DNA of 63,887 bases, filler included, from Basidiobolus ranarum (Eukaryota), in NCBI GenBank assembly GCA_040143965.1. It is 5 parts of 5 records of this genome, joined end to end, with 100 filler letters (N's around TTAATTAATTAA, not from the genome) between each part and the next. Parts side by side here need not be neighbours in the genome. Positions count along the whole stretch, not along the records: positions 38,457 to 51,147 come from JASJQH010007403.1; 4 more parts are not named here. One strand, given 5' to 3'. The notes below the pieces were generated by a model, which worked only from the letters and a program-made list of their open reading frames with translations, was not told where the DNA came from and searched no databases. Below, one piece after another: positions 7,512 through 50,845 of the stretch. The position numbers were made by a program, and so were the translations under genes. Position 1 is the first letter of the stretch. Each line of letters opens with the position of its first letter.

Positions 7512-9056
7512 TTAGCTGACAAATACAGGGAGGGCAATGTTTTTCAATGTGGGATGCTCGGTTAAATCCTTGAGAGATTTTCCGGTTATCATCAACTCGG
7601 AAGCATTCAGGTATTTCAATCTGGGACAATTGCCCATCACTGATTGGATAATTAAATCTCCACTCGTAGGCGTATTTCCAATGGGTTCACCCAAGGCAAC
7701 ATACTCTAATTGTGGCGTATTCTCAATAAACTGACACATCTCAGCTGGGGGAAAGGTCATCTTCTGTATATCTAAATGCTTCAAGTTCTTTGCATATCGG
7801 ACAAGGCTATGAACTGCTTCCACATCTAGGACCTCGACGCCAATTTGGCTAATGACTAGTTTACGTAAATTGGACCCAGCTATCTCAATGATTTTGCGTA
7901 CAGCAAGACTGCTCACATTAGGTAGTTTACGAAGATGCAATTCCCTCAGATTCTTGCACGCCTGGAGGATGGCAAAAAACTCCCGATCATTTAGATTGAA
8001 ACAATCGTGGAATTTGAGGGATTTGAGACTGCTGAATTGCCCAATTTTCTCTAACCCACTATTACTAGGAATATAGTCGACTATGTGAAGTTCTCGAAGG
8101 CTATGCTGATGATGAGTCAGAAGCGCATCAATTGTCTTCGTTAATGGTTTGTGCGCACCCTCAATATGTAGAGATTTAAGCGAGCCAGGTTCTTGCATGG
8201 ATATAAGGTCGGCAATGTCATTATCATCTATCTTTTCTACCCAAGGATCGAGGTGCAGGCGGAGTCTTCTAAGGTTGCGAGTGGATTGGAATAGAGTTTT
8301 GAAGTTGATATCTTGTGTGCATGGCGAACCTGTAGGATCGTATTTCCAGCGTAATTCCAATTCTCGAAGGCCTGATAACGATATCTTGCCAAGAAAGATA
8401 TCTTCCAGAGGAATTATACCCTTCCATACAAATTTCCGAATGGTATTGAGGTTTCTATTTCTGAACACGGACCACAACTGTTGTGTGATTTTTTGGTCTA
8501 CTAGTGCTTCCTCCATCGTGTAGTCGTAACACCATAATGGATTCGGATTTGCGTTGACAAAGCGTAAAGATTCCTGCAGTTTGACCAAGTTAACAGCACG
8601 AGCCAAGCTAAGATATGGATATAGTGGTTTATGCTCGTCATAGCTAGAGTCGCTGTATGTGGCTATGGATTTCTTGGACTGATCTGTGTGTTCATTAGAT
8701 ATAGTACTGATTTGTACCATAAGCCGCTGTAGAAATAAATAAACCTTGGTAAGGTAATCTACAGGAGGTATACATATTGCGTCGATTTTTGAAATACGTA
8801 ATCTCTCTTCAGTATTGAATACGTTAGGATCAGCACAGCTCAAGTGAGTGCGAAGTAGCATAGCAATTCGAAGTTTTGATTCTTGATCACAGGTAATGTC
8901 ATGAGGGACTAAACTCCAAGGGTCTCTGTAAAGGTGAGATACTCCTACCAAGGACCAACCACGCGACACCAGACTGGCATTGTATAAGGTAGTATAGTCG
9001 TCGTCTATCCAACGAAATATCCCAGGTAAGCAGTCAATTGGTAACCCTGAATTCAT
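7512..9056 (-). CDS. F-box / RNI-like leucine-rich repeat protein
   Basis: Intronless 514 aa ORF with an N-terminal F-box-like motif (LPIDCLPGIF...LYNASLVSRGW...LYRDP) and C-terminal LRRs (LKSLKFHDC, CKNLRELHL, CPRLKYLNA). Confidence 0.85.
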   Translation of the reverse strand: MNSGLPIDCLPGIFRWIDDDYTTLYNASLVSRGWSLVGVSHLYRDPWSLVPHDITCDQESKLRIAMLLRTHLSCADPNVFNTEERLRISKIDAICIPPVDYLTKVYLFLQRLMVQISTISNEHTDQSKKSIATYSDSSYDEHKPLYPYLSLARAVNLVKLQESLRFVNANPNPLWCYDYTMEEALVDQKITQQLWSVFRNRNLNTIRKFVWKGIIPLEDIFLGKISLSGLRELELRWKYDPTGSPCTQDINFKTLFQSTRNLRRLRLHLDPWVEKIDDNDIADLISMQEPGSLKSLHIEGAHKPLTKTIDALLTHHQHSLRELHIVDYIPSNSGLEKIGQFSSLKSLKFHDCFNLNDREFFAILQACKNLRELHLRKLPNVSSLAVRKIIEIAGSNLRKLVISQIGVEVLDVEAVHSLVRYAKNLKHLDIQKMTFPPAEMCQFIENTPQLEYVALGEPIGNTPTSGDLIIQSVMGNCPRLKYLNASELMITGKSLKDLTEHPTLKNIALPVFVS

Positions 9057-43191: not shown

Positions 43192-45378
43192 ATGCCACAG
43201 TCTGGTTTGAATCCTAAAGCACCGGTTAATGTATGCATTGTTGGTGGTGGAAATAGGTGCGTTCCATTTCGTTACTGAGATATCGGACCTTTCCCGGGCC
43301 GTTACCTTTTATATTTTTCAATAACCTCTTTTGCTATTCTAGAGGCTCGACGTACGCTAATTTTGCGTTAAAAAACCCAAACTTAATGCGTATAATGGCC
43401 GTAGCTTCACCCACTGAATTTAGACGATTTAATCTGGCCAAGGTTTGAATTTGTTGGTACCTTTATTTACCTACCAATTGACTCATTATTGTATCAAACG
43501 ATCTTTTCCTCCATAGAGACATAACATAGCACCAGATATGATATTTTCCAACTGGAGAAATGTTAGTATATTTAACTAGATAAACTTACTACAGTAGCTG
43601 AACTATATTTTTTGTGTGTTAACTTCAGCTTGCCAGTCAATCCAGAGTTGCTGATGCTGTTATTATTACGAACCTTGATTCGTTACAATATGAATGTGCC
43701 TTAGGTTGGTGAGAATCGTTTTAACTCAATTCAAAGTATTCGCTTCTTATATATATTTCATATAGCATTTTTGGAAAGGGGATATCACGTTTTGTTGGAG
43801 AATCCAACCAATTTAGATCTTGAGGGTTGCCGACAAGTAGTTGAAACTGCCATCCTTAACAACGTAAAGCATGTCCCTCACTAAATGCCCAACATAATAC
43901 TTAAGCAGAGCCAACAATAATTTTATGATAATTGATGAATTATAGCTACTGTTTTATATCGGACATCCTCGACGATACAATGCTTACAACAAAACGATAA
44001 AGCGCCTGATTGATTCTGGTGCGATTGGAGAGGTTATGAGTATTCAACACCTAGAGCCAGTCGGAATTTATCACCTTCAACCATCTGTAAGCGAAGGAAA
44101 AATTATTCATTGTACCTCCAAGTACTTAACCTACCTCAGTTTTCACGTAGCTCCAAAAAGAAAAATCACACTCTATCATTGTTGGCCAAGGTAAGCAAAA
44201 TTTCCCCTCGGCATATCTTGAAGGTCACCTTAACCGACACTTTACCTTAAACAAATAGAACCTCCACGATATTGACCTGATAACATGGTTTATAGGAACT
44301 CAGTGCCGGGTTAGTACGATATTCTGATGCTTCTCTGGCTATCTCGAAAATTTATATATTTCTCTTTTTACCCTATATATTATCAAACTAGCGAGTCAGC
44401 TCTTTCGGCAACCTTTATCTACCACTAAAATCCAAAAAAGCTGTTCAGCTTCCTGACTCTAGGTAGAACATCACTGTATTAATTTCAACTTGGTAATATT
44501 GGTATTCATCATTGTTAAATAATATCTTAAGTCGTTGTCGCCAGTGCCCTCACGAACAAGAGTGTTGCTATTCTGCTAAACAAATGTTCTCAAATATACC
44601 CGAATTCACATCCAAAATATCCACACCATCCGTAAATGGTAAGTTACTTAGATGCTTTGGTGTTTGTGACCTTTGATTAATTATTCTCGTTCATTTTAGA
44701 GATTGAAAACCTACCAGACACATTCACCAGCACTACCGTTGCAGATGATGGGATCAATAACCAGGTATATATCTTATTATGTTTCTTTGATCTTCGGTTT
44801 ATATTTACAGACTGTGATTCAACCAGATAATTAGTATGGAGTTTGATGGCGGTAAAACATGTAATTTTACTATGGTTTCTTGTACGGAATCTACGTGTGA
44901 ATACAAAACTAGAATCTTTGGAACTTTGGGTGAACTAGAAGCTGATGGACAAGCTATCCGTCTTTTCAACTTTTTAACACGCCGGAGTGAAATTATTCGA
45001 CCAGAGAGAGATGAGGATCATGGAGAAATCTCTGTTAATGGTATTCAATATTTGTTTATTGTTGGTAACAAGCAGAACTAACTCTTACACGACATGTTTA
45101 GATGGAGATAATAGTGGAGCAATTCGTTCGTTTTTAGAATATATTACATATTACGATTCGAATGGACATTTCTCCTGCGATCCCGAGAATGCTTTGGGTA
45201 AGTTCCAATACTCCGATACAAATCGTGTCCTTTTCGCTCTACTTAACGCCATTGGATAGATATTCATTTGTGTGTATTTGCTGCTGAGGAAGCACGTAAA
45301 CATGGAACAGTAATTAATATCGATGATTTTCGCCAACAATTAGTTGAGAATATGGAACAAATGGACACCAGTGATTAA
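43192..45378 (+). CDS. Gfo/Idh/MocA-family oxidoreductase, highly intron-fragmented
   Basis: Hand-spliced exons: VCIVGGGNR|GSTY, ADAVII, GYHVLLENP, IKRLIDSGAIGEVMSIQHLEPVG, LAK|NLHDIDLI, VSSFGNL, CRQCPHEQECCYSAK, MEFDGGKTCNFTMV, TRIFGTLGEL, HLCVFAAEEARKHGTVI. Roughly a dozen short GT-AG introns; some boundaries are approximate. Confidence 0.82.
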
Positions 45379-46443
45379 AAGCGATATTAGCAACGAATGC
45401 AGCCAGCTTACTCGTGAGAGGACTATCTATTTTGAAGCACCTTGACCATCAAAAAGATTCACATTTGGATCAAGATATATTCACAGTTTATTTGATCGTC
45501 ATAATTAGGAATTCCAAAGATCACCTCCCCATGCAACACGGTTTTAAAAATGATTTTATGATAGAATGAGCAATTTTATTCTAACTGCCAGCTACATCCA
45601 CTTCCATGTAACAGCCCTTCTCTCTTATTACGAAATTAAACCATATACATACGTTCTTCTCATACTTTAAGCAGCTTCCGACCTTTTCCCACATGTATAA
45701 CAAGCTAGATCCCCTCCCGAATATTTGTTTAGACACTAGATTTCATTGAAATTTATCATTAAAACAATCCCTCGTCAGACCTCTTGGCTGTTGTGTCTCT
45801 CTGATCATGATTAAAGCATGTAGAAGGTTTCGCTTCTGACAGGTATTACAAACAGAGACTTGATTGATGGTGTTTCTGGACATCACCAATAAGCATCAGG
45901 ATAGGATTCATTGGTATAATTACTACCATGTAAGGCTAGGGACCCATTGCCAGGTAGGGCAATTAGATTATATCGAATCCTTAAATAACCACTGATTCAG
46001 ATACTTGGATAGGAAAAGTCATAAATGATCTAGCAAATGATTGGTGTTATGCCAATGTCACAGTCCACGGAATGTTCAATACATTCCCCACGAACTTTCG
46101 TTACGCTACCAGTAATTGCCTATTTACTTTTTGGACTATTAAGCGTGTTTCGTCGGATTTCGAACTATCCGATCAGGCCGAAAGGCTCAGCTAGCACTAT
46201 GTTACTCAACACATACCGTTTCACAATAAAATGGACAAAGCCAACAGAACATTGACTACACTCATCATGTTAAAGGTGAAAGAATACACGTGACAACACC
46301 ATAGTCAATGTAAAAAAAAGATATGTATGGTATTAATTATTTGTTTATTTTACAGACGCTGATTCATATCCTAGAGTGAAGATTGGTTAGTCATTGATGC
46401 TAGCATTTATGGATTTCCCTTAATGATCAATCTTTAGATGAGT

Positions 46444-46517
46444 TCAGAATATGGCATGGTAACTGCCGGTATAATCACAGTGAATCATTAGACCGTCGTG
46501 AAAATTTGTATCATCAT
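46444..46517 (-). ncRNA. snR73: Box C/D snoRNA, snR73/U35 homologue (guide for LSU Cm2959, yeast numbering)
   Basis: C box ATGATGA; guide TCACGACGGTCTA antisense to LSU UAGACCGUCGUGA; D' ATGA; D box CTGA. The D'+5 rule hits the first C of AGACC. Confidence 0.9.
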
Positions 46518-46693
46518 CTAGTCCAATCCAAGGTTGACCATGCAAGTGTTTCAAACTAAACTCAGACTTACCTTCAGAAAATGAAGATCGTTTGGTTTGA
46601 TAAAGCGAACGGATACTTACCACCTGAGGTGTAATTAACATTGTCAGTTATTGCTTCACATCCATTGATAACACTGGTTGCTCAAGAGAATTA

Positions 46694-46756
46694 TCAGTGA
46701 CGAAAATGGTCCTTCATTAAGATCGGACATATGCTTGTCTTTGTCTAACTCATCAT
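46694..46756 (-). ncRNA. snR74: Box C/D snoRNA, snR74/U27 homologue (guide for SSU Am28)
   Basis: C box ATGATGA; guide AGACAAGCATATG antisense to 18S CAUAUGCUUGUCU; D' CCGA; D CTGA; flanking stem CAAGAGA/TCTCTTG. Confidence 0.92.
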
Positions 46757-46909
46757 TAAACTTCTCTCTTGCTACCCGCTTCATCGATCATTTCATATTT
46801 ACCTTGGAGACGACGAATACTCTATACAATTCCTCTACAAGTGGACTGAAATATCGGTTAGAGAAAGGTGAGAATAAAAAAAGAAGACAATTGCTGTAAC
46901 AAGAATCAA

Positions 46910-46986
46910 TCAGGTTTTGGCATGAATGGTAGAAAAGATGGTGTCAACAGTGAATAACTCATCTGACTCGTCATCAAAGTCATCAT
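46910..46986 (-). ncRNA. snR75: Box C/D snoRNA, snR75 homologue (guide for LSU Gm2288)
   Basis: C box ATGATGA; guide GATGACGAG antisense to LSU CUCGUCAUC, followed by D' CAGA; second element CCATTCATGC antisense to the nearby GCAUGAAUGG; D CTGA; 11-bp flanking stem ACAAGAATCAA/TTGATTCTTGT. Confidence 0.9.
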
Positions 46987-47147
46987 CTTGATTCTTGTAC
47001 AGTATCAACGATAGAGATAGAAAACTCACCAGAGCACAGAGGGCCCGGTTGCCAGGATGTCGTTGGTCACTAATCAGCACATATATGAACCTAAGCAATG
47101 TTGGTGATTAGTTAATGAAAGAGAACAAATAATATGCTCTGGTTTGA

Positions 47148-47226
47148 TCAGAAGAGTACAGTGCAAAACTATCCATCATGAATTTTCGGCCGGTAATTCC
47201 AGCTTATTTTGCTTGTATATCATCAC
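47148..47226 (-). ncRNA. snR77: Box C/D snoRNA, snR77 homologue copy B (guide for SSU Um578)
   Basis: C box GTGATGA; guide AGCTGGAATTACCG antisense to 18S CGGUAAUUCCAGCU; D' CCGA; C' ATGATG; D CTGA; flanking stem TGGTTT/AAACCA. Confidence 0.92.
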
Positions 47227-47380
47227 ATAAAACCAAGATGTAATCGAGAGTAATGCTTACAAAAGATGCGGCTTATGTACAGTGGTAGTAGTCTACATGC
47301 TCAGACTCTTGCTTAGATGCGCTTAAGGCTGGTTGAAGTTAGAATACAGTTTGAGAGAATGATTGTTGAGGATTGTGTGA

Positions 47381-47466
47381 TCGGACACCGGTTTTCTAGG
47401 CCGGGTGAATGCATCTCGTCATGATTCCAGCGTCTAAACTGGTCAGTGCCCAGTGCGTTTCGTCAT
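47381..47466 (-). ncRNA. snR76: Box C/D snoRNA, snR76 homologue (guide for LSU Cm2197)
   Basis: C box ATGACGA; guide GCACTGGGCA antisense to LSU UGCCCAGUGC; D' CTGA; C' ATGACGA; D CCGA; closing stem GTGA/TCAC. Confidence 0.85.
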
Positions 47467-47614
47467 TTCACTACCCATATAAAGGAAGCATTGCTTACCA
47501 AAGAAAGTAGAAGCACCAAGGATAGAGTAATTACAGCGGTGGACCTAGAGAATGAATATACTTAGCGACATGTTGTATACACCAATCACTCATCTTATCT
47601 GGCAAGGTGTGATT

Positions 47615-47692
47615 TCAGGGAGTACAGTGCAAAATTATCCATCATGAATTTTCGGCCGGTAATTCCAGCTTGTTTTGCGTGTGTATCATCAT
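47615..47692 (-). ncRNA. snR77: Box C/D snoRNA, snR77 homologue copy A (guide for SSU Um578)
   Basis: C box ATGATGA; the same 14-nt guide AGCTGGAATTACCG with D' CCGA; D CTGA; flanking stem AAGGTG/CACCTT. Confidence 0.92.
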
Positions 47693-48220
47693 TACAACAC
47701 CACCTTTCCAACGCTAATAATGGGATGATTCACATACCATTAAATGTTCTGTTTTCGGAAATGCTTTGCTGGTCTTGTTCCCTAGTGTTTCGAATTATTC
47801 CACAAGCATCAACCCCGGATGGGTAGAAGTTCGATGCATATTACCGGAGATGGGAATTGATAATGTTAAACTGGGAATAGTAAATCCATTTATATAACAG
47901 CTCGACTCCACTTTTTTTTCATCTAAAGTGATTTCGATTTTTCTTAAGCAGGGGCGATTGTTTGGCTTCAATCATTTAATTGGTTATATGCTCTTATTGT
48001 CGAGCTTGAGTTAAATCTGATCGATATTGGGCAACAATTTGATCTATATTCAGTAGTTATTTAATAGGTTTTCAGCAGCAATTGTGGCACGATTCGATAT
48101 ATATGGAGTTTGAACAAAATAGAATTTCCATTCATTTTCTAATCAATCTCGCTAGTTTGCTATAATAACGAACTTCACTCCGGGAAATCATATCCTATTT
48201 ACACTCCCTTAGTTATCATA

Positions 48221-48589
48221 ATGTCAAACCCCACTGTTCAGGTTGTTGAAGGTATAAGAAAGTTCTCTTTCTTTCATCTGTTACATGAATTCATATAGCT
48301 AACTGACCTTGATGTTCATATAGAAGAAAAAAAGGGTTTCATGGAAGAGATCTGGCTTTCCATTTTTACTCCTGGCGTCAATGGCTCGGTTGTCAAAGCC
48401 ATGAATCTATCGTTCATTGCCTCATTGGTTTCTTTGGCTTTTTTGGCTTATTCTACTGGAGGTGACATTCACGCCATCATCGTATTTGTTATCACTTCAT
48501 GCCTCTTCGTAGCTGTCAACCTCTTAGTCAAAGAACTTGAAAAAGCCAAAATTGCCGAGGCTAGTGAGGAGGTTAAGAAAGAAAATTAA
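48221..48589 (+). CDS. PKR1: V-ATPase assembly factor Pkr1
   Basis: Exon 48221-48251, intron 48252-48323. The IWLSIFTPG motif followed by two TM helices and a charged tail is characteristic of Pkr1. Confidence 0.82.
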
Positions 48590-48935: not shown

Positions 48936-50845
48936 CTAATCGTGACACCATCTACTCGGGATGCTCTTTTTTCGTTGTTGTAATTGAGCTTTATACAAGC
49001 TTGTTGGATTGACGTGAGCTCCTAAACTATGCCACCAACCCTGAGGAATGTCCTTTCCGAACACACCTCTGTTTTGCTCTCCTATCACTCCAAAAGCGAA
49101 GTTCCATGCTGTAGGAGGCTTTTGAGCAATAGCTCTACCTACTGTATTCCAAAGGACATAATTGGCACCTGACCACCCATGCCCACTGCCTAAATGTTTA
49201 CGGTTTTGAATGGAAAGCGAGGAGTGAACATTATCAAACAAACCCCCGACTGACCAGCGATGATGAGGTTCTAAAGGATAATAAGAGACATTTTCATTAC
49301 TACAAAGATTCGCTAACTAAATAGTATACCATGAAGTTAATTACCACTGCTGCCATGTTGGTTTTCAGCTGTACAATTATGAAATACATTCGGACCAGTT
49401 ACTTGCGACCCAACTATAAACGCGTGTCTAGCATGCTCAGCATAATTCCCTTTAAACAGGATTAATTCTGCGCCTCGGTCAATGAAAAAGGCATATCTAT
49501 TTCCACCTTCCAGTGGAGCAACCGGTTCTAGGTATTGGCAGTTCTCCACAGTTACCCACTTTGCGTGATTCGAGACAGATATGAAGTTATTGAAATGCCT
49601 AGCGGTAATGTTTCTTGCGAAGCCGTGTATCATTCTTTCGAAGGAGAGGACTGATTCCGAATGTTGTCCATCTGAGAAATACTTCTCTCCCATTTCATCG
49701 AAAGAAACTTTACTAGCATCGTACTCAGATATAAGGTTGATATGTTCAATTCCAACATGGTTCAGACGCCCATAAAATCTATATGGGAAGATTCGACCAC
49801 CTCCCCATCTTTTCTCAATACTATTGGTGATGGGGATGTCAAGGGTGACGATCCCACTAGTTCTGTCTATCGCCTGAACTGTACGAGTAAACAGCAGCTT
49901 GAATGGTCTCCAATTCACCACACTAGAGGCTCTCTGTGGTCTGTACAAACTTAAATTATGCATTCCGATCTCTTGAATCCAATTTTGGTTACCACGTCTC
50001 TCTACAATAATTTCATCGCCAACTCTAAATCTATGTGAGATCATAGGATTAATTCGTAATTGGACCGAGCCAACCGGTACATAGGTTTGCAAGATTTCGG
50101 CGGTAATTCTAGATTTCGGCATTGGACGTCCTTTGCCGGTTACTTGAAATACAGTGAATCGATTTTTGCCAGTAGCCAGTATAGTAGTGTTTCCATGAGG
50201 ATCCCCACGAATTACCACTCCAGACTGGGTTATGCGTAAAGTTTTACTAACTTTGAATAGACCGGATTTTAGTAACAGAGCGCCTCTATACCCTGTATGA
50301 GAGTCCACTGGAAGTTGCTCTAACCGATCTATGGCCAATTGAATACGTTCTGTATCATCTGAAGGATGTACCGCAGGGATTACCGTCACCATAGTGAGTA
50401 TATTTTCTGGGATTTCCTGGTCACCACTTTCATAACCCACACGAGAAAAATCCGGGATTATGTCATTGGTAATGGAGTAGTTACGATAGCATAATCCCTG
50501 AGGATTACTGGAATCATACTCCACCAAGTTATTCATAGAAATTAGAGTTTTACTAGGCATCGGCGCATCGTTTAACGGGTAAATATTTTGTTCGAAGATG
50601 GTAGGGAATATCCTTTCTCTGGATCCAACTTGGGTGGAGTCCCCAGTTAAAATGGATCCTTTAGAGTTACCAGAGAAATCCTGGAAAACGTATGACATTG
50701 GGCTTGTAAGTATCCCTAAAGTTATCCCAAATGTGATTGTGATTCCCAGTAGAATACTGATCAATCTATGACGAAATGTAAAATAATTCCTAGTACAATT
50801 CGAGATATCCTGATGCTTTAGTGTTATTACCGGTTGTCTTTTCAT
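48936..50845 (-). CDS. Membrane-anchored parallel beta-helix (pectate-lyase-like) carbohydrate-active protein
   Basis: N-terminal TM; IPDFSRVGY, DDTERIQLAID, GALLLKSG, SGVVIRG, GPNVF and SS|EPHHRWSVGGLFDNV...GHGWSGAN motifs; intron 49271-49344. Confidence 0.8.

Follow-up and report, generated by a model that had tools for sequence, protein, structure and literature searches.

The closest described relatives of the locus reported here belong to the fungal 'snoRNA cluster I', i.e., the series of small nucleolar RNA (snoRNA) genes snR78-77-76-75-74-73-72 that was analysed across fungi (PMC3596301). In the portions of that report covered here, all snoRNAs of the cluster were described as intronic in euascomycetes, in Basidiomycota and in the zygomycete Rhizopus oryzae, whereby 83 introns were verified by expressed sequence tags (ESTs) or through RT-PCR (reverse transcription polymerase chain reaction), and the spliced host RNAs were found to be devoid of long open reading frames (ORFs), in which they resemble the U22 host gene of mammals. 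For Neurospora crassa the same intronic cluster with a non-coding host was reported, coming along with RT-PCR support and with alternative splicing (PMC2780460, likewise in the portions covered). Here, a locus of the fungus Basidiobolus ranarum is described, which was identified within a 63.9 kb stretch of its DNA (63,887 nucleotides (nt), hereafter the window) and which is very probably the B. ranarum non-coding snoRNA host gene, the counterpart of cluster I (snR78-snR72 in Saccharomyces cerevisiae). The gene spans from about 47896 to 46344, i.e., ~1.5 kb, and reads as a small multi-intron gene; all host-gene and snoRNA coordinates given in the following refer to the minus strand. With the clusters of Neurospora, other euascomycetes, Basidiomycota and Rhizopus, as far as these were covered, it has in common the snoRNA families and their order, introns that each hold a single snoRNA, canonical splice signals and a host that is non-coding and has only short ORFs. 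The S. cerevisiae snR78-snR72 locus has the five guide families, their 5'-3' order and the five ribosomal RNA (rRNA) targets in common with it, but differs in being intronless, in giving rise to an unspliced transcript and in comprising seven snoRNAs, including snR78 and snR72 with a single snR77. The mammalian genes UHG and GAS5 are likewise spliced non-coding hosts whose introns carry a single box C/D snoRNA each, a likeness which was drawn in the covered parts of PMC2780460 and PMC3596301; they differ as they carry another snoRNA set, and no orthology of the host genes is implied.

The six snoRNAs follow one another in the order snR77-snR76-snR77-snR75-snR74-snR73 within 47696-46431 (~1.27 kb, Table 1). 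Both the families and their order had been proposed by an earlier reading of this DNA (the sequence-only reading), which had also named an Rfam search as a check, and this search reproduced them. All five Rfam matches with E≤0.1 that were obtained in the 63.9 kb, considering both strands, fall inside the snoRNA locus, and neither across 45300-46370 nor across the window as a whole did the E-value scans reveal any further snoRNA at E≤0.1. The E-values given in Table 1 derive from an Rfam E-value scan of 45500-48500 (3 kb); when intron 6 was scanned alone, the SNORD35 match improved to E 0.0058, whereby UCACGAcGGUCU was aligned to the guide of the model. For units five and six the best Rfam models were those of human SNORD27 (U27, RF00086) and SNORD35 (U35, RF00211), the human genes of which lie in other host genes. 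RF00086 was equated with U27, snR74 and Am28 or Am27/28 (PMC3511168), and the N. crassa table lists U35 as homologous to snR73 (PMC2780460, in the parts covered). In the Rfam alignments, the guide segments were identified as the conserved parts of the units. As the sequence-only reading had stated, one unit running from box C to box D was found in each of the six introns. These units measure 63-86 nt. Box C is AUGAUGA or GUGAUGA and box D is CUGA in five of the six units, the exception in both cases being snR76, whose AUGACGA and CCGA align with boxes C and D in the snR76 model of Rfam; its C' box is AUGACGA as well.

The exon-intron layout was obtained by cutting the introns by script at splice motifs which had first been picked by eye in the sequence (Table 1). 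The script returned introns of 170-201 nt and internal exons of 43-68 nt, in agreement with the six introns of about 170-200 nt and the short minus-strand exons of the sequence-only reading. Each intron carries a CTRAY-type branch motif 10-20 nt 5' of its YAG 3' splice site. When a 5' motif was required 15-60 nt upstream and a branch motif plus YAG downstream, such motifs were found to flank all six snoRNAs, as compared to 1.55% of 40,000 random 85-nt window positions. The longest ORF of the predicted spliced RNA starts from the ATG that closes exon 1, runs over the joined exons 1-3 and comprises 34 codons as previously estimated; the joined exons carry many stops in all three frames and hold no long ORF. 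The splice signals and the lack of an ORF of relevant length fit a non-coding host in which every intron holds one snoRNA, whereby the splicing of the six introns is predicted from motifs. The distance from the end of box D to the branch A amounts to 53, 42, 40, 52, 50 and 57 nt in introns 1-6, respectively. According to Hirose and Steitz, box D to branch point spacing of such order reportedly favours the splicing-coupled assembly of box C/D small nucleolar ribonucleoproteins (snoRNPs). For N. crassa, distances of this kind were described to matter for snoRNA processing (PMC2780460, in the parts covered). Aside from these signals, a second consensus GTAAGT is located at 46620-46615 (-), 3 nt past the 3' splice site of intron 5, which could be a candidate alternative 5' splice site, the use of which would skip the 52-nt exon 6.

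As the window itself is devoid of rRNA, the guides were assessed with ribosomal DNA (rDNA) contigs from metagenome eukaryotes, which had been fetched by the ITS4 primer pattern, so their choice was independent of the guides. Complete small subunit (SSU), 5.8S and large subunit (LSU) rRNAs were delimited by Rfam in the contigs L047, L036 and L029, and each snoRNA was compared with the rRNAs of L047 and L036, whereby exact Watson-Crick complements were considered. In all six units an exact complement of 9-14 nt was found to stop 0-1 nt before box D' (Table 1). Hence, a guide directly before D', as claimed by the sequence-only reading, holds throughout, with the qualification that D' is a variant box in most units, namely CCGA in both snR77 copies and in snR74, CAGA in snR75 and AUGA in snR73, next to CUGA in snR76. 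A control in which the six snoRNAs were all shuffled in each of 200 rounds gave a longest complement of 14 nt in no round, of 13 nt in six and of 12 nt in 20 rounds, 10 nt being the commonest outcome (92 of 200 rounds). Because of this distribution, length alone is significant only for snR77 and snR73, and it is the position beside D' that carries the rest. When the whole window was crudely scanned on both strands for RTGATGA...CTGA units that match rRNA by an exact complement over 11 nt or more, four units were obtained, each of which lies in the locus.

Taking the fifth nucleotide upstream of D' as target, the predicted targets are U572/U588 in the 530-loop region of the SSU for snR77 and LSU C2137/C2244 for snR76 (each on two rDNA contigs, C2137 being that of L047), LSU G2228 for snR75 (L047), SSU A28 for snR74 (both rDNA contigs) and LSU C2892 for snR73 (L047, counted by hand). 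In yeast, the sites 18S Am28, 18S Um578, 25S Cm2197, 25S Gm2288 and 25S Cm2959 are assigned to snR74, snR77, snR76, snR75 and snR73, respectively (PMC5699541). The predicted target bases agree with this table for all five sites, A28 is also identical in number, and in L047 the targets of snR76 and snR75 (C2137 and G2228) are 91 nt apart, as are 2197 and 2288 in yeast; the equivalence of the sites other than A28 was derived from near-equal numbering and sequence context and not from an alignment with yeast rRNA. The five target sites of the sequence-only reading were hereby reproduced on two independent rDNA contigs.

On the side of box D, the elements of none of the six snoRNAs (snR77a/b, 76, 75, 74 and 73) showed a pairing of at least 12 nt with the two rDNA units when G-U pairs were allowed and mismatches were not. 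For snR77, D-side complements of 9-10 nt to LSU ~450 were considered and rejected, as they occurred in one contig only and were within the chance range of the shuffles; the D guide of the N. crassa snR77 homologue was predicted to target the U5 small nuclear RNA (PMC2780460, in the parts covered). Within snR75, the segment CCATTCATGC at 46919-46928 (-) is a 10-nt exact LSU complement, which pairs 22 nt downstream of the segment targeted by the D' guide, a spacing that holds in all six rDNA contigs with both strings. This segment agrees with the Rfam snR75 consensus and stops 7 nt before box D, i.e., too far for a methylation guide, and it probably represents an accessory pairing helping the D' guide of snR75. 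A further D-side element, GGCCTAGAAAACC of snR76 at 47389-47401 (-), agrees with the consensus of Rfam snR76 and of Aspergillus fumigatus Afu_513; in the two rDNA units tested it gave no pairing of at least 12 nt, G-U pairs allowed.

Based on published fungal clusters, we infer a course of transcription, splicing, processing and methylation in which RNA polymerase II would transcribe ~1.5 kb from a TATA-bearing minus-strand promoter and the spliceosome would excise the six introns, which measure 170-201 nt and each enclose a single box C/D snoRNA with its box D 40-57 nt before the branch point. While splicing proceeds, the core snoRNP proteins are expected to assemble on the kink-turn formed by boxes C and D; subsequently the lariat would be debranched and trimmed by exonucleases until the protected core of 63-86 nt and a short terminal stem are left, and the RNA made of the joined exons would be a by-product. 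Finally, the D' guides would direct a fibrillarin-type 2'-O-methylation at five conserved rRNA sites, whereby the equivalent of 18S Um578 would be served by both snR77 copies and those of 25S Cm2197, 25S Gm2288, 18S Am28 and 25S Cm2959 by snR76, snR75, snR74 and snR73, respectively. No new mechanism is put forward herewith, as the snoRNA families, their targets and the host architecture are textbook knowledge or have been published.

Several observations weigh against the reading of the locus as a snoRNA host gene and counterpart of cluster I. With the curated gathering scores, the whole window yields snR75 as its single Rfam match, so that strict family membership applies to this unit only and the scores of the other five are lower than required; these are treated as divergent orthologues, on the basis of guide, target and position rather than of the curated cut-off. 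Moreover, boxes C and D of snR76 are non-canonical and the units include the variant D' boxes CCGA, CAGA and AUGA. Complementary flanks able to form a terminal stem are visible at all six units, yet the stem energy clearly beats that of shuffles only for snR75 (-13.3 kcal/mol, a value which 0 of 300 attained) and snR74 (12 of 300), while shuffles matched the stem in 41 of 300 cases for snR77b, 77 for snR73, 105 for snR76 and 113 for snR77a. The guide pairing was assessed on eukaryotic metagenome rDNA and not on B. ranarum rRNA, and the splice motifs entering the random-position control were defined after the locus had been seen, which overstates the contrast obtained. Part of this evidence would fit a real cluster that includes inactive units, whereby snR76 or one of the snR77 copies would be a decaying duplicate or pseudogene: snR76 reaches 40.3 bits at a gathering score of 55, its boxes C and D deviate as described, and the two snR77 copies are redundant in that they share the same 14-nt guide. 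Decay of snR76 is opposed by its intact guide, its intact D' box CUGA and the agreement of its D-side element with the Rfam consensus. Decay of an snR77 copy is opposed by the comparison of both copies, which flank snR76 and agree in 72 of the 79 positions that align from box C to box D (7 differ), as compared to 21 of 45 and 38 of 71 in the intron flanks, and which each possess an own, different terminal stem. As the bodies are similar and the flanks diverged, the duplication is not recent or the bodies were held alike by selection or gene conversion, and the pattern suggests that one of these forces acted on both copies. The existence of an inactive unit is hence regarded as unlikely.

The intronic origin of the snoRNAs also has to be weighed against an alternative route of biogenesis. 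The S. cerevisiae orthologues snR72-78 derive from a polycistronic precursor which is cut between the units, as in plant clusters. In the same manner, the six Basidiobolus snoRNAs could be real but released from a polycistronic precursor by an RNase III-type enzyme and subsequent trimming, the splice motifs being coincidental or relics; for S. cerevisiae and close relatives, the snoRNAs of the cluster were indeed reported to come from unspliced primary transcripts (PMC3596301, in the parts covered). This explanation would however require that, at six of six units, a 5' splice site, a CTRAY branch followed after 10-20 nt by a YAG, and a box D to branch A distance of 40-57 nt had come together by chance or as remnants; furthermore, Basidiobolus is not a hemiascomycete, and all non-hemiascomycete lineages examined in the covered parts of PMC3596301 possess the intronic form, so that a polycistronic precursor is considered very unlikely. 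Even less probable is a host gene that encodes a protein or a functional micropeptide and whose introns would carry the snoRNAs as passengers. Such a gene could be sought in the 34-codon frame which the exon-1 ATG opens over exons 1-3, but stops abound in each of the three frames of the joined exons, and cluster hosts of other fungi were described as poorly conserved and without long ORFs (PMC2780460 and PMC3596301, as far as covered). The spliced non-coding host as counterpart of cluster I therefore is the reading that is followed here. The proposal of the sequence-only reading of an orthologous cluster with one snoRNA per intron is supported by families, order, targets and splice motifs; its splicing component stands on motifs.

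With respect to the outer members of the cluster, neither 45300-48500 nor the remaining part of the window gave an Rfam match to snR78, snR72 or a fused snR78/72. According to the covered parts of PMC3596301, most fungi have lost snR72 from the cluster, and some Basidiomycota have lost snR78; since both are often lost, their lack does not exclude membership in cluster I. The sequence-only reading had further considered the layout as perhaps undescribed, which does not hold true, as it had already been published for N. crassa (PMC2780460) and for euascomycetes, Basidiomycota and R. oryzae (PMC3596301); also the idea that the intronic layout is the older state is already implicit in the parts of these two reports that were covered. 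In literature searches on Basidiobolus snoRNAs and on snoRNAs in early-diverging phyla, no report of this instance of the cluster was found, and Basidiobolomycota do not appear in the species lists of PMC2780460 or PMC3596301 within the passages covered. It thus appears that only the instance is unreported. What is new are the lineage, the retained snR76 and the second copy of snR77. In R. oryzae and archiascomycetes snR76 was reported as lost together with its intron (PMC3596301, in the parts covered), whereas in Basidiobolus it is kept; the two snR77 copies around snR76 are set apart from the text passages compared, and the published figures and supplements, which lie outside this comparison, may hold such duplicates.

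The age of the cluster has been the subject of diverging statements. A fungal snoRNAome analysis from 2018 described the 77-76-75-74-73 cluster as having arisen at the root of the Ascomycota, the genes being dispersed at the root of the Dikarya (PMC5824354, in the parts covered). B. ranarum, which the sequence-only reading had called an early-diverging fungus, is placed by NCBI in the phylum Basidiobolomycota, and its locus, like the Rhizopus and Basidiomycota data from 2013, does not fit this dating. As the order of the snoRNAs is identical, an independent assembly of the cluster is unlikely, though one locus alone cannot settle this question. We lean towards the view that the linked order snR77-76-75-74-73 within one spliced non-coding host predates the split of Basidiobolomycota and Dikarya. 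If true, the arrangement would rank among the most ancient conserved arrangements of non-coding genes in fungi; it would run counter to the Ascomycota-root statement of 2018 (PMC5824354, as far as covered) and would extend the Rhizopus observation of 2013 (PMC3596301, likewise) by snR76 as a member of the ancestral cluster, and the internal snR77 would then be a lineage-specific copying of an intron plus its snoRNA inside the host gene. The locus provides a deep-branching data point for the dispute between PMC5824354 (Ascomycota root) and PMC3596301 (Basidiomycota, Rhizopus), whereby it sides with the latter, considering the parts of both reports that were covered, and points to snR76 as a probable member of the old cluster. 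Apart from this, a correct annotation is provided for a locus in which protein-gene predictors would call nothing, the early-diverging fungus itself being poorly annotated.

Table 1. Features of the predicted B. ranarum snoRNA host gene and rRNA complements of the D' guides (positions are those of the window; GA, gathering score)
Feature	Position	Strand	Properties
Candidate TATA box TATATAAA	47889..47896	-	picked by eye; ~150 nt upstream of first 5' splice site; putative function
Exon 1	47738..47850	-	47850 is an arbitrary limit; 3' end is the ATG at 47740-47738
Intron 1	47545..47737	-	193 nt; GTATGT...CGCTAAG (branch A 47562)...TAG
snR77 copy a	47613..47696	-	RF01181, 46.1 bits (GA 50), E 1.3e-4; box C start 47692, box D end 47615
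Exon 2	47499..47544	-	46 nt; script cut
Intron 2	47329..47498	-	170 nt; GTAAGC...TTCTAAC (branch A 47339)...CAG
snR76	47377..47471	-	RF01209, 40.3 bits (GA 55), E 1.3e-6; terminal stem GUGA/UCAC
Exon 3	47261..47328	-	68 nt; script cut
Intron 3	47091..47260	-	170 nt; GTAAGC...AACTAAT (branch A 47108)...TAG
snR77 copy b	47146..47230	-	RF01181, 48.7 bits (GA 50), E 4.2e-5
Exon 4	47030..47090	-	61 nt; script cut
Intron 4	46846..47029	-	184 nt; GTGAGT...CTCTAAC (branch A 46858)...CAG
snR75	46908..46991	-	RF01185, 55.7 bits (GA 40), E 5.6e-10; terminal stem 10-11 bp
Exon 5	46803..46845	-	43 nt; script cut
Intron 5	46624..46802	-	179 nt; GTAAAT...AACTGAC (branch A 46644)...CAG
snR74 / SNORD27 (U27)	46690..46761	-	RF00086, 47.3 bits (GA 52), E 1.3e-6
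Exon 6	46572..46623	-	52 nt; script cut
Intron 6	46371..46571	-	201 nt; GTAAGT...GACTAAC (branch A 46387)...TAG
snR73 / SNORD35 (U35)	46431..46519	-	RF00211, 22.3 bits (GA 36), E 0.087
Last exon, start	46344..46370	-	AATAAA at 46349-46344, putative polyadenylation signal
Guide of snR77 copies a and b			14-nt complement to SSU CGGTAATTCCAGCT, 530-loop region
D' guide of snR76			10-nt complement to LSU TGCCCAGTGC
D' guide of snR75			9-nt complement to LSU CTCGTCATC (L047)
Guide of snR74			12-13-nt complement to SSU positions 25/26-37, 5' end of SSU
Guide of snR73			14-nt complement to LSU TTAGACCGTCGTGA, L047 LSU 2887-2900

Downstream of the AATAAA, a seventh unit with ATGATGA at 46268 and CTGA at 46187 (-), ~80 nt apart, appeared C/D-like by eye and was rejected as a chance occurrence, since the candidate at 46187-46268 gave no credible Rfam match and no rRNA complement. 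Among the metagenome contigs, L029 was found to carry a group I intron within its SSU rRNA gene (8173-8528, -), and L031, taken from a 174 kb contig, shows an exact match to the ITS4 primer, yet no rRNA was found in it by Rfam.

Upstream of the host gene and on the same strand, a 502-codon ORF is located at 49337-50845 (-), which shares 100% identity with K7432_008971 of B. ranarum (611 amino acids (aa) in its annotation), whereby the organism is identified, and gave no Pfam match. Paralogues of the ORF with 64-70% identity were identified in B. ranarum and B. meristosporus, some of which are named pectin or pectate lyase superfamily. Matches outside Basidiobolus are nearly all bacterial or metagenomic, plus one from Linnemannia, a distribution which suggests that the family was horizontally acquired. 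On the other side of the locus, plus-strand stop-to-stop ORF pieces of 59-93 aa are found at ~43.7-45.3 kb, and these pieces (43700-45300, +) look like exons of an intron-rich gene converging on the snoRNA host gene.

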